From the NCBI GenBank assembly GCA_951406725.2, contig OX597829.1, forward strand, positions 27,466,001 through 27,530,000: a stretch of 64,000 nucleotides of DNA, read 5' to 3'. The stretch comes from Octopus vulgaris (Eukaryota). Shown in pieces: positions 12,640 to 61,945 of this stretch. The notes under the pieces were generated by a model. That model was not told where the DNA came from. It saw only the letters and a program-made list of their open reading frames with translations, and searched no databases. The translations under genes and the position numbers were made by a program. Position 1 is the first letter of the stretch; each line of letters begins with the position of its first letter.

Positions 12640-12892
12640 TATTTATCCTTAACACAGTGTAGGTAAAAATGCACCGGAGTCTTTAGTCATCTGCGAAGTC
12701 ACAAGGACCCCGGGCAAAAAGCTTTGCGGCATTTCTCCCGTTTTACGGTTCTGAGTTCAAATTCCGCCAGGGTCGATAAAATAAGTACCAGCTGAGTACT
12801 GGGGTCGATGTAATCAACTAAACTCCTCCCCAGAAATTTCTGGCCTTGCGCCAAAATTTGAAACTATTATTATTATCATTATTATATCACTG

Positions 12893-14447
12893 ACTCTCGA
12901 ACCACTCCTACACAAACTGGAGGCGTTGAGAGGCATCCCGCGTGACATAGGATGTGGGAGATGCGTGCCGGCATATGCCAACGACGTCACCGTAGTGGTA
13001 TAATCGGCACCGCTCTCAGAGACTACGAGACGGTTTCAGGAGTATCAATTAACCAGGAAAAATCAGTGGGACGAGGTAACGAGCAGGGTGACTATTCTCA
13101 CCCAGCAATGGGCCGAGAGAAAGATGTTCCTGAAATGTCGAGAAGAGGTGAGTAACGCGTATATCCCGTCTGTCATCTACTATCGCTTGACCATCGTGCC
13201 TTGTCCTGGTCACCGTCTGATTATGTTGGAAGGTATACTCTTCCGCTTCTTGTGGAAGGAACGTATCCCGATGGTCAGGCGGTCTATCTGCTGTTAACAC
13301 CCGCCTGGTGACCTGGGCACGCCGTGGTTGATGATGTGTAGACATGCGCTGAGGCTACGACACCTCCAGTGCTTCCTTGGCGGTGAACAGGTGTGATCAC
13401 TGTTTGCCAGACACGTATTTCCGCAGCTAGTTTCTTTAACGGAGCTGCCGTCCTGGGTAAAACAGACACCGAGAGGGAGCATTTGGAAAGTGGAATGTCT
13501 TCAAGCACTCACAACTCTCAGCTAATTGGACACTGCGATAGGTGGTACGTCCACTTTAGCTTTTTATAGAGGTTTAGTGGAGGGAAAGTGTTACGATGTT
13601 CTTGGGCATCGAAGATGAACAGCTGGCTGCTCTTTTCCGGAGAACTTTCGACCCGGGACCGATGGATAATTTCCAAAAATCTCTGGCCTGGCAGTGCTAC
13701 CGGGGAGCTTTGCCTGTTCGAGATAAACTTTAGGGAGTGCCGTCAGCCAAGTATGTCCGAGATGCGCGCAGGACGACAAGACGGTCCTGTATGCATTCAT
13801 CCAGTGCCCAAGCATTGCTGACCTGTGGGTTTATGTCGAACACCTGCTGTCGCGTGTGAGACGGGCCGATGGTCAACCCGCCACCTTCCGAAGATCGCCC
13901 CGCCACCTTCCTTTAACCAGGAAGGAAAGGCTGTGTCTATATGCCTGGTGGCCATGGCGAAAGAGGTTGTATGATGGACGAGATTGAAGGGGCTGAAGAC
14001 AAACACTTTTCTCTTTGGCCAATCCCTGATCAACTTTTTCAAGTTCCACTTGAAAAAGAAAATAAGGGCAGAGGGAAATGTTGTCTTCTAGCCAGTTGGC
14101 TAGAAAGGTGGATGAAAGTGGTGAGAATGGTGCGAGTGAACAGGCCTGACCTGAGCATACGTCTGTAGTTGACAAAAAAAAAAACGAAAGGAAAAAAAGG
14201 CACTTACCCCAAAAGTCAGGCTACCCGTGGTTTTTTATGGGGTTTTTCCATGCGCAACCCTCGAACGTTTCCTCCCTATTGAGAATTACACATTGTTGAT
14301 TTTTAAAAAAATTGTTAGCCTTGTTTACAAGCAAAACCTTCACAACAACACACACTCACACAGATACACACAAACATTCTTTTGTTTCGTCCTGTGCTGT
14401 CCATAATGTTTTTCTTAATGTAAACCTTTGTGGTTAATAAAGAAATC
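12893..14447 (+). mobile_element. Old 5'-truncated Tx1-like LINE (3' half of ORF2 plus 3' UTR)
   Basis: Frameshifted translation LEPLLHKL...INQEKSVG...SVIYYRLTIVPCP...FLWK...MMCRHALRL is colinear with ORF2 at 31260-32679. Ends cctttgtggttaataaagaaat, like the young element. Confidence 0.9.
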
Positions 14448-24439: not shown

Positions 24440-24910
24440 ATTCTGATTGGTCAACAAGTTGATGACGTCTAGCTCTGCTAGAATGGACAGGATACAAACA
24501 GGGGACAGTCATTAGTCAGAATATTGATGACGTCCTTTTCTGCTTGAATAGTCACCTAACAAGTACAGACAGGGGGCAGATCTAATGTAGCGATAAGTCG
24601 TGATTGGGCAGAATCTGGATAACGTCCCGCTCTGCTTGACTAACGAAGCGACTGGTCAAAACAGGAAACAAACAAGAGGCAGATATAATGCAGCGATTGG
24701 TCAAAATAATGATGATGTCCCGTTCTACTTGACTAACGAAGCGACTGGTCAAAACAGGAAACAAACAAGAGGGAGTTATAATGCAGTGATTGGTCAAAAT
24801 AATGATGACGTCCCGTTCTACTTGATTAAAGCCACCTAACGAAACGATTGGTCAAAACATTGATGACGTCACGCTACGCTAGATTGACCACCTAACAGGC
24901 ATTATAAAAC
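24440..24910. repeat. ~93-bp tandem repeat rich in CCAAT and TGACGTC motifs, followed by TATAAAA
   Basis: tgactaacgaagcgactggtcaaaacaggaaacaaacaagagg at ~24637 and ~24730. GATTGG and GATGACGTC recur. TATAAAA at ~24903. Confidence 0.75.
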
Positions 24911-25452
24911 CGAGCATTTCACAAAAACTCACTAGAACCACCCAGCGAACTTCCACCATGGGTCATCACAATTGCTTAAGGTAAAAATGAATTCCTCGCT
25001 CTTTCGGAAACATCAATCTTCTGTATTGACCGCTTTCCACCACTTTGATCTGTTTTTTGTATTGAATACGTATCGCCACCGTGGGCCACTGCATCGAACA
25101 CTTTGAACATATACTTCAAACTATATATCAACTATACATGAACTATATATCAACTATACATGAACTCTAAGATGTCTGACTCCGTTGTGTATTATAAATG
25201 AATTTCTTGTGTTTGACGGCATGAGCTGTCTTTTTTTATATATAACTTTTTTTGATAAGGTTCATTTCAGGAACTGAAACATGTTATAATGTATATATAA
25301 AAATTAAAAATTGTATAATACAGCAGCATTTTCGAACTTCATTTTTTACAAATATATATATCCAAATATATATATGTCCAAGGTGCCATACAGTGGGACT
25401 GAACCCGGAACCATGTGGTTGGAAAGTAAGCTTTTTACCGACCACATACGCC

Positions 25453-25483
<31 letters not shown>

Positions 25484-25939
25484 TGTATGTATGTATGTAT
25501 GTATGTATGTATGTATGTATGTATGTATGTATGGATGGATGGATGGATGGATGGATGGATGTTGAGGTTTGTGTGTGTGTATTTCCTTTCATTCAAGCGT
25601 TCTTGCCTAGAGCGAGCCCATAGCAATATCATATTTTCTCCACTATTTCAGTATTACGTGTTAAAAGTGAAACAAAAACATTTCTCTATTTTATGTCAGA
25701 TACTTTCACTTTAACAATAAAAACAATAATAACAATTGAATTATATGTAGTAAGTAATAATTAAAATCAAACTAAAGTATAATATAATCGTAACATAACA
25801 AAAGTAAAAATAGCAATTGGTATAAAATTGCATCAATGACTTGAACTTGAATAAGTGGTTTCACATGAATGGGAATAAATTAAAAATAAAATTAGCGTGC
25901 AGAAATGGAATAGTCCAGATGGATAATAAAAAATTAAAT

Positions 25940-25986
25940 TAAAGAAAAGACTATTGTCTATAAAGTATACAATGTAGAGAAAAAAG
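25940..25986 (+). pseudogene. 5' piece of decayed Tx1-type ORF1 (host element C)
   Basis: aaa gaa aag act att gtc tat aaa gta tac aat gta gag aaa aaa = KEKTIVYKVYNVEKK. Aligns to RRTIKYKVF (A) and RRIIYKTF (B), just N-terminal to the part that resumes at 32928. Confidence 0.55.
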
Positions 25987-27662
25987 GTCGCGTTTTTTTG
26001 CGCTCTGTAAAATTCGGTTAAAAAAGAAAAAACAACAAAAAGTGAATTGTGGTTGCGGAATTGGAACGTCGGTTGGTGCGGTTTCGCGTCGCACTGGTTC
26101 TGTGCGTCGCACGTTTTCTGTTCGGGAGGCCGTTTTTCGGTCTGAGGCGACTATGAGCCGCCTCTACCAAACGGATGAGATGGAAGGAGAAATTTCTCTG
26201 AAAATTCGTCGACATCTGAGGAGGAGTTGGCGGTGAAAAAAATGGAAAGCACCTATGCAGGTATAACGAAGAAGTCAACAGAAAAAGAGATAGACCTGGC
26301 TAAGTTGACGGACTTCCAGGAGTTCATGAAGGAGGAGGAGAACGGAGAGGTTGAGCTGTTGCCTCTAGCAGGGCGCGGAGACTGGTTCCATCGTAGAACC
26401 ATTAAATATAAAGTATTTATGAATGGAGGTAGAAAAATGGAAGTGATTAACATGGAAGCAATTGAAGAGGCTTTCAAACGGACAGGAGAAGAAATTGTGT
26501 ACATGACAAAAGGATTAGAATATGGAACCATAACGGTACAATTTAAAAGTGAGAAAGCAGCCAGGAATATAGCAGCCAAGGTGGTGAGTACAGAAAAGTT
26601 TTACTTGTTCCCCTCGTATTTGAATAGAAGGACCACCAGAATTAGGGTGGAAGGAATACCTCCACACCTAGAGGGCGAATTAATAACGGCTGCGGTTATC
26701 AAAGGAAATGAAGATAAAGTGGACATCCTCCACGCCATTATGAAATATGAAGGCGTGAGAGGTGCCACACTAGTAATGAACATACAGACGGAGGCGGAAG
26801 TTATAGAAAAGCTTACGGACAGTATAAAAACTGGAAATATTATTATGAGAGTGTGGGTGGAGGGTAGGGCGCCCAGGTGCTACAAGTGTGGCCTGAGGGG
26901 TCACATAAGAGCCTACTGCCCTCCCCCACTAAAGGAAAAAGAAAAGGAAATCGTCGCGGAAGCCCCAAAAGAGGAAGAAACCAAAGAGAACCAAAGGGAA
27001 AAAGAAACGACAGAAGAAGAGGAGATGCAACAAGAGTGGGAAGAAGGAAGAAAAAAGAGAAAAAGAAAGAAAAAGAAAAACTGTGCGAAGCCCCAACCCA
27101 CCCCAACACCACCCGCACCCTCTGAATCCCACCCTTCCCCTGCAGACAGTGAACCCACCCGCTCCCCTCCAACAAGAAAACAAAAGAAAAATAACAATAC
27201 AGACAGACAAGAGTTTGAAAACGAACCCAGGCCGAACATTTATATTGTGACTGAACAGAAAGAGGTTGAAAGGGTAATGGAGGAGTATGAATGGTATGAA
27301 ATGGATGGGACCAGATATGCAGTGCTGGAAAAGAAGAATATAGATGAGTTTGTGTTGAGGTGTGAAAGGGAGAATTGGGAGGTGAAAGATACAAGAATGA
27401 GCGATGAATTCGTGGAATATATGGAGGACAGTTTCGGAGTAAGAATGGATATGGATGGTCTTCGTATTGGGAATGAACATTCAGGTGACAGTGAAAACAA
27501 AAGGACAGGTAAGTGATGCTGGCGGAGGGGGCCGTTAGCATCGCTTTCATATTATCATTTTTTCATTTTCATTTGCTCATAAATTTAATCATATTGTTCT
27601 ATGTCCCCCATGTTTTGTTATGTCCGCCATTCTTCGTAGCCCCTGGTGGGTAATAAAGAAAT
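25987..27662 (+). mobile_element. ORF1-only non-autonomous Tx1/L1-derived element (half-L1-like), element A
   Basis: GC-richer 5' UTR, one intact ORF1 and a ~145-bp 3' UTR ending gcccctggtgggtaataaagaaat. No endonuclease or RT sequence. The 5' boundary is approximate. Confidence 0.75.
26242..27516 (+). CDS. ORF1p (gag-like nucleic-acid-binding protein): RRM-like region, CCHC zinc knuckle, charged/Pro-rich linker, C-terminal domain
   Basis: Uninterrupted ~424-aa ORF from ATG 26242 (track 26227). Knuckle VEGRAPRCYKCGLRGHIRAYC. TTRIRVEGIPP motif typical of Tx1/L1-clade ORF1. Confidence 0.88.
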   Translation: MESTYAGITKKSTEKEIDLAKLTDFQEFMKEEENGEVELLPLAGRGDWFHRRTIKYKVFMNGGRKMEVINMEAIEEAFKRTGEEIVYMTKGLEYGTITVQFKSEKAARNIAAKVVSTEKFYLFPSYLNRRTTRIRVEGIPPHLEGELITAAVIKGNEDKVDILHAIMKYEGVRGATLVMNIQTEAEVIEKLTDSIKTGNIIMRVWVEGRAPRCYKCGLRGHIRAYCPPPLKEKEKEIVAEAPKEEETKENQREKETTEEEEMQQEWEEGRKKRKRKKKKNCAKPQPTPTPPAPSESHPSPADSEPTRSPPTRKQKKNNNTDRQEFENEPRPNIYIVTEQKEVERVMEEYEWYEMDGTRYAVLEKKNIDEFVLRCERENWEVKDTRMSDEFVEYMEDSFGVRMDMDGLRIGNEHSGDSENKRTGK

Positions 27663-27675
27663 AACATGGAGGAAA
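27663..27675 (+). repeat. Target-site duplication, left copy (AACATGGAGGAAA)
   Basis: Identical 13-mer at 32925-32937. Confidence 0.85.
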
Positions 27676-27893
27676 TCAATTTATTGCGTTATTAGTAAGT
27701 TGATATATATTTTTGCTCTCATACTACTTATCTCTGTTATTATATACTGTTGGTCTACCTTTTTTTGTCCATTGTTGTCTAACGGACGAAGTCAACCTTC
27801 GCGCGAAGACTTCGCGTTGGTGTTCCCCCCTCAGTGGGGGAAAACTACAATCAATTTAGATTACCAAAGGTTTGTTAAAGCCATTTGTTCAAA

Positions 27894-29277
27894 ATGGAGT
27901 CCCCCATCACTTATTCGCCCGTGACGAGCGAGGAGGAATACCCGGCGTTGTCGCCAAGTAAAAAAGAGGCGTTGTCGCCAAGAAAAAAAGAGGCGCTGTC
28001 GCCGAAGAAAAAAGAGGCGGCGTCGCCCAAGAAAATGGTAAAACCAGTACCAGCATCAACTCCAGCAAAAAAATTCGCTGAAGTGGCTGGGAAGAAAATT
28101 AAAAAAATTAACGTGGACAACCTGGGAAAACATGCGGACTGTGTGTCAAAAGAGGGCACGGAAGTAACCGTGGCTTCAAACGCCAAAATACAAGGAGGAT
28201 ATTTCGAATAGGAGAATAATCTATAAGACATTCAGTATAACAAACAGAGCAATCCAAAAAATAGAGGAAAAAAAGATTGAAAACTGCTTAAAGCCAATAA
28301 TGGATAAAATTACGTATATCAATCGAGGGAAGAAATACGGCACAGTGGAGGTGAGATTCACGTCAGAGGAGGTAGCAAAGAAGCTATCCATGGAACCCAT
28401 AAAAGCAGAGGATATTGTTCTCCTACCCCTGTATAAAGGCAAGAGAACTTCCAAGATCACTATGAACAACATCCCGCCAGAAGCGGATGCCGAAGTCCTA
28501 GTGGCAGCAGTTATGGTAGGCCTGGAGGAAAAAATAAACATCCTCCAGGCCACCGTAGAAGAAGAAGAATTCTGGAAAGGGCAAAAGATAATAATAGCCA
28601 TACAAGCAGAAGTACAAACCCTGGAAGAGATCCCAGAGACTCTTAGGATAAGCGAAGATGAAAGAGTCACAGTCTTCGTAGAGGGCAGAAAGCCGAGGTG
28701 CTTCGGCTGCGGTAAGAAGGGGCATGTAAGGGCGGAATGCCAGCCCCAACCCAAACCGCAGGAAGCACCTAAGCCAAAAGGAAAAGAAGACAATGTGTCA
28801 TCAGAAGCAGCGTCAGACGGCCCAGATGGGAAGACTGAAGGTGTGGAGGTGATGGTAACAGCAGAACCAGCGGCGGAGAAAAAAAAGAGCGAGGAAAAGA
28901 TAAATGAGGAGGGGTGGGCAAAAATTATCGGAAAAAAAAAAGAAAAACGGAAACCACCCCTCCCAGAGTAATTTTAAAAAAGAAAAAAGAGTCAATAAAC
29001 TCATATATGGCCGTAAAAGCATCAAATAGCAGACTCGGAAACGTGTTGGCAGCCATGGCCAATGTGAAGAGAGTAGAGAGAAAAAAAAAATGACTTTGTA
29101 ATTTACAAAATAGACCGGAAGGATTACGGGCGGATAAAGTCAGATTTCTTCCATGACGTAGGCCCACTTAGGTTGGATGTAACATCTCCACATATATTCG
29201 AGGGCCTACGTCAGACTCCCCCACGAGGCCCAGAAAAAGAGAAGGAAGAAGAAGAAAAAACCGAACCACTGATATAA
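27894..29277 (+). CDS. ORF1p of LINE B (3 apparent frameshifts)
   Basis: Track ORFs 27885-28211 and 28300-28971 join via a shift near 28208 (..YFE/RRIIYKTF). Knuckle CFGCGKKGHVRAEC. Reading continues through shifts in A-runs near 28940 and 29090 to TAA at 29275-29277. Confidence 0.8.
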
Positions 29278-29286
29278 AGGTAAGTA

Positions 29287-32200
29287 ATGGATTACATTTA
29301 TGTTGGTTGTTTAAATGTGCGCGGCCTGGGAGCAGGCTGGAAGCAAGGTCGCTTCCTGCATGATATCAGGTCGCGTAATTTAGATGTTATTGTTGCTACA
29401 GAAACCCGGCTAGAGGGGCCAAGAGGTCTACTCCCGCTGTTTGACGGCTACGAGAGTTTTTCTCTCCTGGCAGTCCTACAGGCGGGAGTGGGGTGTTGGT
29501 CCTATTAAAAAGAAACCGGGTTTCTGAGAAAAAGTTAATTTTTGCAGATCCAGAAGGTAGGCTGGTCGTCATGGATTTGACGTTCAGTAATGGTAAAGTT
29601 ATCAGACTGGTTGCAATTTACGCACCCAACCATACAGGGCAAAGTGATTATTTTCGTGAACTAGAAAACTTTCTTGGTACTTCGCATTCATTAGTGGTGC
29701 TAGGAGACTTTAACACAATTTGCAAAGCGGATGTAGATTATGTTGGCTCGTGTCCAGATAGAAAAGGCAACAGTGGCTTCATGGAACTGCTAAGCCGCTT
29801 TGAGCTAGCAGATCCTTATAGGCTGGAATTTCCGAACGCTCCATTGTGGACATGGTCAAACAGCGACGGATCTTCCAGGTCGTATCTAGATAGAATACTA
29901 ATTAGAAAAGTAGACAGTAAAATAGCTAAGTGTCCACAGTTTTACCCGATCAGCTACAGTGATCATAAAATGGTCACTTGTAAGCTTGACATAGATAAGG
30001 TTAAAAATAGAGGATCCGGTTACTGGAAACTTAATACGTCCCTTTTGGCGATTAAGGAGTACAAAGACCGGATTAGGAATATAATTCAGAGGGCACTATC
30101 TGGTACCATCATTAATAACAAATGGTGGTACGCCCTCAAACGAGCCATCAAGTTTGAGTCTATTAGATATAGCATAGGAGTAGTGGCTAGAGAGGCTAGA
30201 AGGGAAACTACTCTAGTTAAGGAATTAGAGGAAGCCATGAAAACTGGCTCTGCGGCTCAGGTGGCGGCCAAGAGACTGGTGTTAAACCAGCACCTCGAGG
30301 CCAAACACATGGGCTGCATTGTCAGGGCTAGAATCCGTCATATGGGATGTGAAGGAATCAACGCCGTGAGATGGGCCCGAGTGGTGGAAGCTCAGCATGG
30401 TAACGATGCCACGATTCGATCTTTGACGAACCAACAAGGTGAGTTGATAAACGAACCCGAGGAGATGTGTGAGGCCTTTCAGGAGCACTTCGCTCAGCTT
30501 TTCGGTGAGTGCGGCGGACTGGATAGGAGGAGGGCCTTTACGGACCTACTCGACGGTCTGCCGCGCTTATCGGGGCGAGATGCGGAGGGCTGTGAAGGGC
30601 CAATCACGCCTGAGGAGGTGGTTGAGGCAATGGCGGACTGCGGCGCGGGCAAGGCGCCGGGTTTGGATGGTCTACCCTATGAGTTATATAAGAGTATGCC
30701 AGACTTGTTCGGGCACCTACTGGCGGAGGTCTACGCGAACTGGCAGCAGAACGGGCTTATACCCAGATCTGTGCGCCGGGGAGTAGTGACTCTCGTCAGA
30801 AAGGACCCGAGCAAGGGGAGTGCATTGATAATTTCAGGCCCATCACTCTGCTAAACACAGAGTTGAAGATTTTGGCCAAAGTGTTATCGAAAAGATTGGC
30901 GCGTGTCGCGGATGGTCTGATCGGAGGGGCACAGACATGTGCCGTTCCGGGCAGATCCATTCAGGATAATCTCCATCTAATGCGGTACACTATAGAGGGG
31001 TTTAATAGTGATTCTGGCAAGGGTGGGGCACTGGTCCATTTAGACCAATCTAAAGCTTTTGATAGGGTCGACCATCGTTACCTGGTATCTGCCCTGGCAC
31101 AGTTCGGGCTGAGCCTTGGATTCCTCAGGTGGATTATCGAAATTTATGATAACATCGACTCGGTAGTTCGGGTGAACGGCTTCTTGTCGAAGCCGTTCAA
31201 AATCAAACGCTCGGTTCGTCAAGGGTGTCCGCTCTCCCCGCTTTTGTACGTGATGGCTCTTGAGCCATTACTGCGAAAACTGAGCGGCATCCCGAGACAG
31301 CCAGGTAATGGAAAATCAGTGTCAGCGTACGCGGATGACATCACCATCATCGTAACCGAAATGGACCACCTATGTAAAGTAGGCAAGGCCATAGAGGTGT
31401 ACGAGACGGTGACAGGAGCAAAAGTTAATCGCGAAAAGTCAGTCGGCTTGCAACTCGGCACCTGGAGAGGCAAGTCGATGCCTCCTGACAGCGTCGTGGG
31501 ACGTTGGACGGAGGGTCCGATTAAACTGCTAGGGGTCTGGTTCGGTCCAGACCTCCAAATAGAGAAGAATTGGGGCGAGGTAACGAGCAAGGTGGCTGCA
31601 GTAGCCAAGACCTGGTCTTGGCGGTGGCTATCCCTGAAAGGGAGGGCGGAGGTGGCCAATGTGTTTATCGCATCGGTTATCACCTACCGCCTTTCCGTCG
31701 TTCCTTGCCCTGATTCGTGGTTGATCAAGTTGGAAAGACAGCTCTTCTACTTCTTGTGGAAGGGCGGGAAACCACTTGTGAAACGCTCTACTTGCTGTCA
31801 ACAACCGTTAAAGGGGGGCTAGGGATGCCTTGGCTGATGATGCGCAGACATGCGCTGAGGTTAAGACATCTGTGGCTCTACCTGGATGGTGAACGGGTGT
31901 GGTCTTCGCTAGCAAAACTGATGTTTCCCAAGTTCACTAGTTTCGGTGGATGGGAAACCTGGCTGAGTCGTAGATCGAAACTTGGTACTTGGTACACGGA
32001 GTGTCGCAAGGCTCTCCTGCTATTCCGTCGCTCGGGCAACGCCTGCGGTGGGGGTTCCACCACTTTCTTCTATAGAGGGTTGGTAGAGGCGGAATGTGAA
32101 GATACCTTGGGGGAAACCCTAGGTCTCGACGATAATCAGCTGGCCAGTCTGTTCCGACGTACGTTCGAGCCAAGGACACTGGACAACTTCCAGAAGTCTC

Positions 32201-32679
32201 TGGCATGGCAATGCTACAGAGGAGCTCTACCTGTTCGGGATAAACTCGCAAGGCACGGTGGCCAAGACAGTCCGATATGTCCAAGATGCGGGCGGGATAG
32301 GGAAACCGTCCCGCACGCGATTGTTCATTGTCCGGACGTGTCTGAGGTGTGGGTTTATGCCGAACACCTGTTGTCAGGTACACGAAGAGTACAGCTGTCG
32401 ACTGAGTCGATTACAAAAATTGACCCACCGGATTTCCTCGTGAATGAAGGTAAGTTTCGTTTTCTCGTTGTAGTAGCAATCGCGAAAGAGGTGATATGGA
32501 AGACGAGAATGAAAGGTTTACAGTCAGGCAAGTTCATCTCCGGCCCTGGTTTGATGAATTATTTCATCTTTCACCTGAAAAGGAAGATAGGGCTGGAGAG
32601 AATATGCCTGACTAGGAGAGCGTATGAAGAACGATGGATGGATGTAGCACGGAAGTTGCGAATGAAAGTTACAACATAA
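29287..32679 (+). CDS. ORF2p: AP endonuclease + reverse transcriptase + C-terminal zinc-binding domain (3 apparent frameshifts)
   Basis: APE motifs LNVRGL, IYAPN, GDFN, SYLDRI, SDH. RT motifs KAPGLDGLP, NFRPITLLN, LDQSKAFDRV, VRQGCPLSP, YADD. C-terminal CPRC...HAIVHC. Shifts near 29460, 30820 and 31815. Confidence 0.93.
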
Positions 32680-32924
32680 ATGTAATACCAAGTGCAACCA
32701 AAAGTATCAGTGGGGAGGCGGGGCTCGTGGGGTCCGAGCTAAACCCGCACCCACTCCACCCGTAATGTCTTCCGGTCTGTCCTATCACTCGATTTTTGTC
32801 CATTTATTGTTATTCATGAAAATTTTTAAACCCGATTTATTGTAAAAACCCATTCGTTTGTCTGACCCCATCATCAGAATGTATTGTCCCATCTGTGTTC
32901 GCCCCTTGTGGGTAATAATAAAAC

Positions 32925-32937
32925 AACATGGAGGAAA
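32925..32937 (+). repeat. Target-site duplication, right copy (AACATGGAGGAAA)
   Basis: Identical to 27663-27675. Confidence 0.85.
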
Positions 32938-33222
32938 GCACCTTCGAAAAGTGTTTTGGTGCGACTATGAAAGATATCTAATCAGAGGCGGTAAATTCGC
33001 CACAATAGAAGCAAGGTTCGAGTCAATGGAGCGTGCAAGGGAGTACTCGACTCGAACTTGCAAAGTGGAAATATTTTATTTTTACCTTACGTAGGACGTC
33101 CCAGAAAAATTTTTAAAATGCCCCCTCCCCAGAAGTAGAGGTAGGCTGGATTGTAGCCACACTTCTATACAAGAGGGAGGACAAGATACAATTGATCGAA
33201 ATTACAAGAGACGGGCTAACAA
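32928..33222 (+). pseudogene. 3' piece of decayed Tx1-type ORF1 (host element C)
   Basis: Frameshifted translation MEESTFEKCFGATMKDI/YLIRGGKFATIEARFES...PPEVEVGWIVATLLYKREDKIQLIE. Aligns to B IEEKKIENCLKPIMDKITYINRGKKYGTVEVRFTS...PPEADAEVLVAAVMVGLEEKINIL. Confidence 0.8.
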
Positions 33223-33367
33223 TTCCAGTCTGTTATATATTTTGAGTATTGTTATCACTAGCGATATCAAGATATAACTTTGTATTTTGTATTTTATGTG
33301 TAGATGTATATATATATAGATGTACATGTAATATGTAGATATATATATATACACATATATACATGCA

Positions 33368-33406
33368 CTAGCACTATGACCCGGCAACGACGTGTCTTTA
33401 ATGCTA

Positions 33407-33450
<44 letters not shown>

Positions 33451-33762
33451 ACTTACTACATATAATTCAATTGTTATTATTGTTTTTATTGTTAAAGTGA
33501 AAGTATCTGACATAAAATAGAGAAATGTTTTTGTTTCACTTTTAACACGTAATACTGAAATAGTGGAGAAAATATGATATTGCTATGGGCTCGCTCTAGG
33601 CAAGAAGTTGAACATTTTTTTTTTGCCCATGGAACTACATGGACCCTAAGTAAGGCATGTGTAAAATTTGAATGAAATTGGTGGTGTAGTTCTCAAGTTT
33701 TAGGGAAACACACAGACAGACAGACAGACAGACACATATTCTCAGTTTTATATATATAAAGA
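33368..33762 (-). mobile_element. Non-autonomous Helitron-like element
   Basis: - strand A|TCTTTATATATATAAAA 5' end with (TCTG)n. 3' hairpin gtcgttgccgggtc then CTAG|T. Confidence 0.7.
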
Positions 33763-33981
33763 TATATATACATATATATTTAAAACAAGCAAATTAGATA
33801 GTTAGAAAACCGTTATATGACATATATTCGACGGGCTTCTTTCAGTTTCCGTCTTACCAAATTCACTCCCAAGGCTTTGGTCGAAGTGATAGTAAAAGAC
33901 ACTTGTCCAAGGTGCCATACAGTGGGACTGAACCCGGAACCATGTGGTTGGAAAGTAAGCTTTTTACCGACCACATACGCC

Positions 33982-33984
<3 letters not shown>

Positions 33985-34012
<28 letters not shown>

Positions 34013-34285
34013 TGTATGTATGTATGTATGTATGTATGTATGTATGTATGTATGTATGTATGTATGTATGTATGGATGGATGGATGGATGGATGGATGGA
34101 TGGATGGATGGATGGATGGATGGATGGATGGATGGATGGATGGATGGATGGATGGATGGATGGATGGATGGATGGATGGATGGATGGATGGATGGATGGA
34201 TGGATGGATGGATGGATGGATGGATGGATGGATGGATGGATGGATGGATGGATGGATGGATGGATGGATGGATGGATGGATGGAT
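33985..34285. repeat. (TATG)n-(GGAT)n microsatellite
   Basis: Direct reading. Confidence 0.95.
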
Positions 34286-34961
34286 GTTGAGGTTTGTGTG
34301 TGTGTATTTCCTTTCATTCAAGCGTGTTGCGTAGATACTCATTGTGAACGCGCCGTTAATTCGTCCCTTCCCTACAAAGACTCGACTTTGCACGTTAGAC
34401 AGGTGGTAGCAACATCTCTATACTTCAGTACCAAGGTAATAACTGAAGTCCAATGTCCAGAAATGTATTACAGACTTCCTACGGCTGTGATGGCGGACGA
34501 TAACTGCAGCAGCTTGAAAAAACAATTCAGTCGTGCTGGTCTTCTTTGACCTCTTACAGTGAGCATTCTGGGATACGATGTGAAACAGTACCTTGTACAT
34601 AAAACCATATTTCTAGAAGAACTCGAATAACAGAAGTAGAATTAAAAATAGGCTTTAAGAATACTATTTATTGAAGTTCAGTTGTCTGTAACTCAGAATA
34701 GCTGTCTGTGAAGGTTTTTCAGCTTTGATGAAAGTATATATATATATATATATATATATAGTACACACACACACACGCACATACACGCATATATGTATAT
34801 ATGTATAGAATATATATGTATATTTTCTTTTCTCTGTATATCATAACTAGTATTACAATTCAGTATAGAAGTTCCTTATCAACTATACAGGAAGTAGACT
34901 GGAATATGATAATCTACGAAGTACTCTAAATGAAACAATAGCAGTCATACATCTATATATA

Positions 34962-38150: not shown

Positions 38151-38750
38151 ATTTCTTTACTGCCCACAAGGGGCTATACACAGAGGGAACAAACAAGGAC
38201 AGTCAAATGGATTAAGTCGATTACATCGACCACAGTGCGTGAACTGGTACTTATTTAATCGACCCCGAAAGGATGAAAGGCAAAGTCGATCTCGGCGCAA
38301 TTTGAACTCAGAACGTGACGGCAGACGAAATACCTATTTCTTAACTACCCACAAGGGGCTAAACACAGAGAGGACAAACAAGGACAGTCAAATGGATTAA
38401 GTCGATTACATCGACCACAGTGCGTGAACTGGTACTTATTTAATCGACCCCGAAAGGATGAAAGGCAAAGTCGATCTCGGCGCAATTTGAACTCAGAACG
38501 TGACGGCAGACGAAATACCTATTTCTTAACTACCCACAAGGGGCTAAACACAGAGAGGACAGACAAGGACAGACAAACGGATTAAGTTGATCATATCGAC
38601 CCCAGTGCGTAACTGGTACTTATTTAATCGACCCCGAAAGGATGAAAGGCAAAGTCGACCTCGGCGGAATTTGAACTCAGAACGTAGCGGCAGACGAAAT
38701 ACCGCTAAGCATTTCGCCCGGCGTACTAGCGTTTCTGCCAGCTCATCGCC
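38151..38750 (-). mobile_element. S2 SINE with triplicated 185-bp 3' unit
   Basis: Unit starts at ~38151, 38336 and 38521. A single head lies at 38750. TSD ttttgcttatctta on both sides. Confidence 0.9.
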
Positions 38751-38948: not shown

Positions 38949-39182
38949 CAAGGCGGCGAGCTGGCAGAATCGTTAGCACGTCGGGCGAAATGCTTAGCGG
39001 TATTTCGGCTGCCGTTACGTTGTGAGTTCAAATTCCGCCGAGGTCGACTTTGCCTTTCATCCTTTCGGGATCGATAAATTAAGTACCAGTTACGCACTGG
39101 GGTCGATGTAATCGACTTAATACCTATGTCTGTCCTTGTTTGTCCCCTCTGTGTTTAGCCCCTTGTGGGTAATAAAGAAATA
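38949..39182 (+). mobile_element. Full-length S2 SINE (tRNA-like head, Meta-like core, Tx1-like tail)
   Basis: ggcggcgagctggcagaatcg...gagttcaaattcc...gcctttcatcctttcgggatcgataaa...gccccttgtgggtaataaagaaata. 17-bp TSD ggtatatcttcggtaac. Confidence 0.92.
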
Positions 39183-61309: not shown

Positions 61310-61945
61310 ATTACAGGTTTGTACTTGTAATCATTGGAGCACTGGAATATTTGACTAGGTACCAATCTTGAGAAATTAAGCTTCTCAAAACCAGAATGGA
61401 GAAAGCTCATTCGAAGACTACAGATCAAAGCCATCACTAGAACTGTAAAAACCTGTAAAGCTCTCCAGAAGTTTATCATTTGAGTATATATGCGCATGTC
61501 TAGATATGCAAATACATGCATGAGAAAACATAAAACGAAACATACAGATCTGCGCTGCTTCTAAATACTGCACATATACTCACATGCAAACAAAATACCC
61601 TATTAAAGTTGAAATTCCAATGACGTAGCCTTGGATCTAGGTGAGAAACCGATTCTTTCTCTATTGGTAAGATTTCTTGAAACAAAGGCGGCGAGCTGGC
61701 AGAAATGTTAGCACGCCGGGCGAAATGTGTAGCCGTATTTCGTCTGCTGTTACGTTCTGAGTTCAAATTCCGCCGAGGTCGACTTTGCCTTTCATCCTTT
61801 CGAGATCGATAAATTAAGTACCAGTTACGCACTGGGATCGATGTAATCGACTTAATCTGTTTGTCTGTCCTTGTTTGTCCTCTCTGTGTTTAGCCCCTTG
61901 TGTGCAGTTAAGAAATAAGAAATCTTGAAATAAAACTGAATAATG
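61310..61945 (+). mobile_element. 5'-truncated R4/Dong-like LINE end, interrupted by an S2 SINE
   Basis: VIIGAL...RKLIRRLQIKAITRTVKTCKALQKFII* follows a (TACA)n tract. The 3' UTR matches 5785-5960. Confidence 0.65.
61684..61917 (+). mobile_element. Full-length S2 SINE
   Basis: Matches 38949-39182. Imperfect TSD aagatttcttgaaa / aagaaatcttgaaa. Confidence 0.9.

Follow-up and report, generated by a model that had tools for sequence, protein, structure and literature searches.

The 64,000-nt stretch of the Octopus vulgaris genome analysed here (assembly GCA_951406725.2, contig OX597829.1, positions 27,466,001 to 27,530,000; hereafter the window, with coordinates counted from its first letter) carries a nest of retrotransposons. 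Two long interspersed nuclear elements (LINEs), an element A limited to the first open reading frame (ORF1) and a full-length element B, lie between two pieces, C-left and C-right, of the ORF1 of a further relative, C. The order is C-left, A, 13 bp, B, the same 13 bp and C-right, and the nest is genuine and beyond chance. Its components are the following.

25929 to 25986, + strand: C-left, ORF1 relic, profile positions 14–32, placed by a hidden Markov model (HMM) and, at 13/15 residues, by protein P0241.
25987 to 27662, + strand: element A, ORF1-only LINE derivative of 1,676 bp, with 5' untranslated region (UTR), ORF1, a 3' UTR of ~145 bp and a tail.
27663 to 27675, + strand: the 13 bp AACATGGAGGAAA, read as the left target-site duplication of B; it matches 32925–32937 exactly, and a contig of run X2 crosses its junction with B.
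27676 to 32924, + strand: element B, full-length L1-group (Tx1-like) LINE of 5,249 bp.
32925 to 33212, + strand: C-right, ORF1 relic with frame breaks, profile positions 36–136, starting with the 13-bp target; found by tblastn and HMM.

An initial annotation of this DNA, made from the letters alone, had taken the two flanks for consecutive parts of one ORF1. The segment 25941–25985 of C-left translates as KEKTIVYKVYNVEKK, and the frames read from 32925 give NMEESTFEKCF first, with YLIRGGKFATIEARF and ..PEVEVGWIVA in shifted frames. A profile HMM built from 45 homologues, with no window sequence included, orders the pieces of C as 14–32 (E 0.013), 35–54 (E 4.6, weak alone), 54–86 (E 6.6e-8) and 108–136 (E 2e-4); outside A, B and C, the top score in the rest of the window is 2.4 bits. 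An exhaustive HMM search returned 702 ORF1 relatives, the best 150 of which were used. In tblastn with these 150, 45 match C-right and 4 match C-left, and among the relatives listed P0241, P0167 and P0149 match both flanks in one chain. P0241 is a single uninterrupted protein, identical to C-left at 13 of 15 residues and 52% identical to C-right. Judged from these alignments, a single ORF1 relic runs from C-left on into C-right, as had been claimed. The break between them spans 3 codons on the profile, not the 4 or so first estimated, and other copies mostly hold 7–10 letters there, where contig letters are listed.

For evidence at the level of individual copies, contigs from four runs (X1, X2, X10 and X13) were aligned to the window; X1, X10 and X13 are DNA runs and were used for depth ratios, and none of the runs listed is recorded as RNA. 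Contigs with an empty site link 25984–25986 directly to 32925–32929. Such links make up 5 of the 15 joints listed (472 in total), they are seen in all four runs, and their shorter side reaches 38–43 letters. One contig of X2, carrying the majority type of A, reaches 30 letters into C-left, one letter under our bridging rule.

The same sequence had been reported to follow both A and B, and this is exact over 13 nt: within the 64 kb, AACATGGAGGAAA occurs twice only, at 27663 (after A) and at 32925 (after B), and the string common to both junctions is exactly 13 nt and cannot be extended. The probability that this 13-mer stands at a fixed site by chance is 6e-8. Matches with two mismatches are not rare, accounting for 8 of the 10 matches in the window, where shuffled sequences would give 2.2 in total. 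The 13 bp on both sides of B read as its target-site duplication. Of the duplication on both sides that marks an insertion by target-primed reverse transcription, B shows an example (13 bp) and A does not: the 5' junction of A has no target-site duplication, and ~7–8 bp of target are lost there, the empty sites holding 7–10 letters that are missing here. A motif resembling the 13-mer, AACATGGAAGCAA, had been placed at the homologous codons of A's own ORF1. It lies at 26449. The homologous position is two codons further upstream, and there A agrees with the 13-mer at only 3/13 letters; the homologous match is found in B instead (28258, codons KIEE), at 11/13. A joint of X13 linking 28015 to 28255, and so ending near this site of B, was not used, as it lies between adenine-rich look-alike words.

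Element A contains the features listed below.

26153 to 27516, + strand: ORF1 of A, with one 1-bp frame break near 26185 in this copy, where a one-base difference is seen in contigs from 3 of the 4 runs.
26875 to 26922: candidate CCHC knuckle of A, under the Pfam cut-off.
27515 to 27542, + strand: stem-loop of 11 bp, predicted where the 3' UTR of A begins.
27640 to 27662, + strand: tail of A, common to B, to a decayed LINE at 12890–14446 and to short interspersed nuclear elements (SINEs) of the window.

No endonuclease or reverse transcriptase match was found in A, and its depth in the three DNA runs reaches thousands, that is, it is multi-copy. With ORF1 only, many copies and a tail common to an autonomous LINE, A resembles HAL1-type elements. 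Its ORF1 is 35% identical to that of B, and DNA similarity between the two elements is almost nil outside the tail. The 3' UTRs do not fold better than shuffled sequences, the whole UTR of A included (z -0.8). At 27195–27268 the depth of A exceeds that of its 5' part several times over, and linked differences occur there, pointing to a commoner sister subfamily or to many 5'-truncated copies. The end of ORF1 in both A (27507–27517) and B (29277–29289) reads AGGTAAGT(G/A)ATG, in which stop and start overlap and which can equally be read as a splice donor; A retains it despite having no ORF2.

Element B carries two ORFs.

27894 to 29287, + strand: ORF1 of B, frame-broken in this copy, its end position probable.
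29287 to 32679, + strand: ORF2 of B, with APE endonuclease, reverse transcriptase and zf-RVT, in four stop-free pieces separated by three 1-bp breaks.

Over 171 residues, the B ORF1 shares 96% identity with XP_036361568.1 of Octopus sinensis; with an O. vulgaris protein the figure is 76%. In ORF2, PF03372, PF00078 and PF13966 all score above their cut-offs. Against solved structures the reverse transcriptase matches LINE-1 ORF2p (E 3e-25) ahead of R2 (7e-16), and the endonuclease has 8 matches, of which only the chain named LR1 does not bear a LINE-1 or LINE-1-like name. Two ORFs, an APE endonuclease, a reverse transcriptase, a C-terminal zinc-binding region and LINE-1 as nearest relative among solved structures place B in the L1 group, and from its architecture we presume that it is likely a member of Tx1. 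A CCHC knuckle in ORF1 is a feature of the Tx1 clade; zf-CCHC scores 13.6 and 14.4 bits in A and B, under the 20.8 cut-off, and the first Atlas match is of CCHC type (0.93); neither Atlas nor cluster names pointed to a clade. Both elements are young: eight contigs from X2, 352–643 nt long, are each 0–7 letters off the window. The break in the A ORF1 and the three in the B ORF2 may be assembly errors, since they coincide with 1-bp contig differences, mostly in short homopolymer runs; the 3' part of the B ORF1 contains additional stops that are not accounted for in this way. Rfam gave 12 weak matches, all under gathering scores. Word-index protein searches returned no match to the A ORF1 or to the frame spanning the junction of B and C, and no locus turned up in metagenome, viral and prokaryote collections scanned at the DNA and protein levels.

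Among the other carriers of the tail, the decayed, 5'-truncated LINE at 12890–14446 is 64–68% like B in parts of ORF2 and ends in (ATC)n; it may be a sister family with another target. The SINEs at 38151–38543 (minus strand), 39159–39181 and 61894–61916 share their ~23-nt tail with A and B, so this group of LINEs may mobilise them. Two of these SINEs are bounded by degenerate duplications of unrelated flanks, with 11/12 and 10/12 matches.

The initial annotation had described C as a third decayed element. It is indeed an ORF1 relic, but not a lone decayed LINE: it is part of a very abundant repeat of ~1 kb, other parts of which, next to a duplicated SINE piece, border the nest.

25375 to 25599, + strand: direct duplicate of 33904–~34324 (SINE piece and ATGT/ATGG repeat), outside the nest, with 98% identity across 187 nt and 86% across 157 nt.
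25600 to 25761, + strand: 162-bp part of the host repeat, an exact inverted copy (100% identity) of 33445–33606.
25762 to 25928, + strand: internal AT-rich part of the host repeat, in the same depth class as the arm and C.
33213 to 33407, + strand: 3' part of the host repeat, ending in an imperfect hairpin and CTAG, then T.
33445 to 33762, - strand: 5' part of the host repeat, locally inverted, with the A|TC start at 33762, (CTGT)n and the 162-bp arm.

Depth is even across the arm, C-left and C-right, at about 8e5 in X1, 3e5 in X10 and 7–9e5 in X13 (at 33056, in C-right, 2.7e5, 2.3e5 and 8.1e5). The host stands at 60–75 times the depth of the A ORF1 and 59–217 times that of the B ORF1 in the three DNA runs, and at 33–53 and 29–47 times in X2; summed contig depth does not equal copy number, and it is the order of magnitude that assigns C to an abundant repeat. 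Loose contig ends at 25600, found in 3 of the 4 runs, continue as the reverse complement of 33607 onward. They connect the left arm with the inverted 5' part, hence the estimate of ~1 kb for the host, and since other copies pass 25600 into the continuation of the right arm, the 162-bp repeat is a local inverted duplication; its reading as the terminal inverted repeats of a DNA transposon was rejected. The host 3' end would belong to the same repeat, depth being shown up to 33290. The segments 25375–25761 and 33445–34335 point to a rearrangement or an assembly error; the duplicated ATGT/ATGG repeats differ in length, and look-alike words lie at the junctions.

The host repeat is likely of Helitron type, to judge by its termini, seen in one copy only: an A|TC start at 33762 on the minus strand, accompanied by (CTGT)n, and CTAG|T at 33404–33407. 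The hairpin near its 3' end is imperfect and not significant (-6.7 kcal/mol, z -1.46). Helitrons amount to 28.6 Mb in 84 families in O. vulgaris (supplement of PMC13282606), and a 1-kb family of thousands of copies is compatible with that total. Shorter forms of the host exist. In one, lacking all of C, 25916 is joined to 33219 at a depth of 2,274 in X1; it joins across a short imperfect palindrome and may either predate the capture or have lost C afterwards by deletion. In another, lacking C-right and seen in three runs, 25986 is joined to 33215. Upstream, 24445–24886 is a degenerate tandem repeat of ~103 bp with CCAAT-like and TGACGT words, its units ~80% alike.

That A and B were inserted at one site inside C, as initially annotated, is supported: these are two insertions at the same base, and therefore either a sequence preference or a coupled event is required. 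Some site preference is the likeliest cause. We consider it most probable, at about 0.55, that A and B share this base because the endonuclease of B prefers a site in the host repeat. What is preferred would be a sequence in that repeat and not ORF1 genes in themselves, and the preference may be less than strict. In such a scheme, a non-autonomous Helitron would have captured an ORF1 fragment of ~0.3–0.35 kb from an older relative and spread to thousands of copies (a rough estimate). B would have cut directly ahead of AACATGG, its insertion by target-primed reverse transcription duplicating 13 bp, and an intact target, the native left flank plus 13 bp, would have stayed in front of it; with B first, the target before it would be native, which is the route put forward for R1 arrays (PMC2718515). 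A, devoid of ORF2 and equipped with a B-like tail, could then have borrowed a B-type ORF2 protein and used the same nick, a few upstream bases being deleted. Supporting a preference, a B-type tail is joined to host position 33218 at depths of 971 in X1 and 628 in X13 (many single pieces at ~40–90 and 45–55), so that by depth this joint is multi-copy in two runs with different organism labels. A piece of A in X13 differs from the window at 1/188 letters and pieces of the B ORF1 at 14/257 and 17/192, and because of this unequal divergence A and B seem not to be strictly co-travelling. The X2 contig of majority-type A that reaches into C-left, the joint of a tail to the 5' end of A (depth 247 in X1), the exact 13-mer, the empty sites of all four runs and the even host depth also speak for a preference, with Tx1 families that favour DNA transposons (PMC4494074) and R1 arrays separated by their duplication (PMC2718515) as precedents.

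Several observations weigh against a site preference of B. AACATGG follows none of the 6 other tail-bearing ends of the window, including that of the LINE ending in (ATC)n, so that the doubt already cast on strict specificity by the initial annotation was well placed. The tail-33218 joint may be a deletion, since it has a 5-letter microhomology and 20–21 letters on one side, and the depth ratios rest on summed contig depth. A contig of X2 covering 27639–28135 has the tail and 13 bp, not C-left, before the 5' end of B, which independent insertions into empty sites would not predict. The 5' depths of A and B are similar, and depth in X2 climbs from 11.5 to 46 along A and B, as fits one copied unit; X2 is possibly RNA from one locus.

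These last points lead to the alternative that the nest was founded once and then copied as a unit, B landing in the host and A being primed from the unsealed nick of B or by a template jump. The placement at one base would then involve no sequence recognition, and the filled Helitron, or a read-through RNA of A and B, would have been multiplied afterwards. The lack of a duplication and the loss of target at the 5' end of A would be in keeping with this, as repair-linked insertions often lack duplications and lose target. The X2 contigs, besides their similar 5' depth and rising depth, give a single upstream neighbour for the 5' end of A and for that of B. Template jumps in vivo have been reported for R2 (PMC3414825), and a large Helitron cargo is plausible given that the recently active Helitrons of O. 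vulgaris average ~4.3 kb (178 insertions, 765,802 bp; PMC13282606, Table 1). Set against this are the X13 pieces, near-identical to the window in A but 5–9% off in the B ORF1, in X1 and X10 a 5' depth of A that is ~1.5–2 times that of the B ORF1 over the positions listed, and the 3' part of B, whose depth exceeds that of its ORF1 several-fold, a pattern that independent 5'-truncated insertions should give, although relatives of at least 85% add to that depth. On balance we regard a single copied founder as unlikely, though it is the main rival reading.

The initial annotation had proposed two other mechanisms. One was that every insertion restores a hot target where its 3' end meets the flank, so that tandem arrays build up. 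In this case A would have arrived first, alone or as Helitron cargo, and its new tail followed by AACATGG would have been the site of B. Such regeneration is conceivable, and an A-first order is equally compatible with the window sequence; a joint of the tail to the 5' end of A has a depth of 247 in X1, and the X2 contig with tail and 13 bp before B fits this idea as well as a copied A-B unit. It is not needed, however, since the 13 bp are explained as the left duplication of B with A in front, and it would require cleavage next to a foreign left flank. Moreover, the SINE tails of the window are not followed by B, and the precedent of R1 (PMC2718515) has new copies entering the 5' duplication. 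We therefore hold targeting of tails to be improbable. The other mechanism was a family-wide targeting of relatives' ORF1 at a conserved site, C being one victim. The 11/13 match at the homologous codons of B would favour it, as would the algal Zepp elements of the L1 group, which insert into existing copies (PMC8226300). Yet A, with its motif off the homologous codons, matches only 3/13 letters there, and the site residues vary widely among the 58 of the 150 listed homologues that span the site intact, the commonest at position 36 accounting for 8 of 58, which makes targeting of ORF1 a weak proposition. Protein ends do not pile up at the site (1 of the 150 listed ends at position 37), and the abundance of C stems from the host repeat. 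As a general rule, ORF1 targeting is thus very improbable and was not upheld.

Returning to the site preference of B, one may ask what such a site would represent. The host repeat being abundant, the target is therefore abundant too. It is possible, if somewhat doubtful, that the ORF1 relic, spread by the Helitron, has become a landing pad, or a decoy, across the genome, and that a young Tx1-like LINE and the ORF1-only element parasitic on it now home to one base of this relic. If the preference holds, the locus offers a young, probably intact APE-type LINE with a defined target of ~20 bp and a natural non-autonomous cargo element; in the open-licence literature we found no target-specific LINE in this lineage. 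It would also allow a test of target choice, namely whether the endonuclease acted first on the ORF1 of its kin or adapted to a sequence amplified by the Helitron. If instead the nest was copied as a unit, it would be a clear case of retrotransposons multiplied as Helitron cargo, and repeated junctions would not need to mean repeated targeting.

The ingredients of this nest are already known separately: targeting of a DNA transposon by Tx1-type elements, arrays spaced by duplications, ORF1-only derivatives and the capture of fragments by Helitrons. No combination of the A, B and Helitron kind, and no octopus case, was found in the open-licence literature. HAL1, the half-L1 (PMC5753468), is, like A, a non-autonomous LINE derivative with ORF1 only; HAL1 derives from mammalian L1, whereas A comes from an octopus, its ORF1 appears to be of CCHC type and its DNA hardly resembles that of B beyond the tail. 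The Zepp and ZeppL elements of green algae (PMC8226300) likewise belong to the L1 group, insert in LINE-derived sequence and form nests. They target themselves and build large clusters, while the target here is a dead fragment of another subfamily spread by a different element, and the ORF1s of A and B are uninterrupted by insertions at this locus. The host repeat can be likened to the Hel-2-type non-autonomous Helitrons of insects (PMC4344730), which have 5'-TC and 3'-CTRR ends flanked by A and T, carry (CTGT)n close to the 5' terminus and contain acquired internal DNA; the likeness is one of features. Here the 3' hairpin is imperfect and the 5' part is locally inverted in this copy.

The endonuclease of R1 is of APE type, as in B. 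The R1 arrays of Drosophila 28S rDNA (PMC2718515) resemble the nest in having head-to-tail copies at one site with a duplication of 13–14 bp between them, later copies entering the 5' duplication; R1 belongs to another clade and targets rDNA, whereas here two divergent families are involved, with ORF1s 35% identical. For Tx1 in general (see also PMC9004415 and PMC3747384), PMC4494074 describes families with a preference for DNA transposons, one such host having two hot spots, and regards a family as target-specific when >20% of its flanks fall in one target type. Close to our locus are, from the same source, Tx1L in Tx1D of Xenopus and the crocodilian Tx1-Mar and SINEU in Mariner-N4_AMi, where, as here, an L1-group LINE and a non-autonomous partner occupy a fixed spot in an abundant non-autonomous DNA transposon. 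In the octopus, by comparison, the host is Helitron-like, the site is supplied by an ORF1 relic captured from the LINEs' own kin, the partner encodes ORF1 and is not a SINE, and the preference is proposed on grounds other than flank counts. What is new here is that one and the same target is both a LINE ORF1 relic and a sequence made abundant by a likely Helitron.

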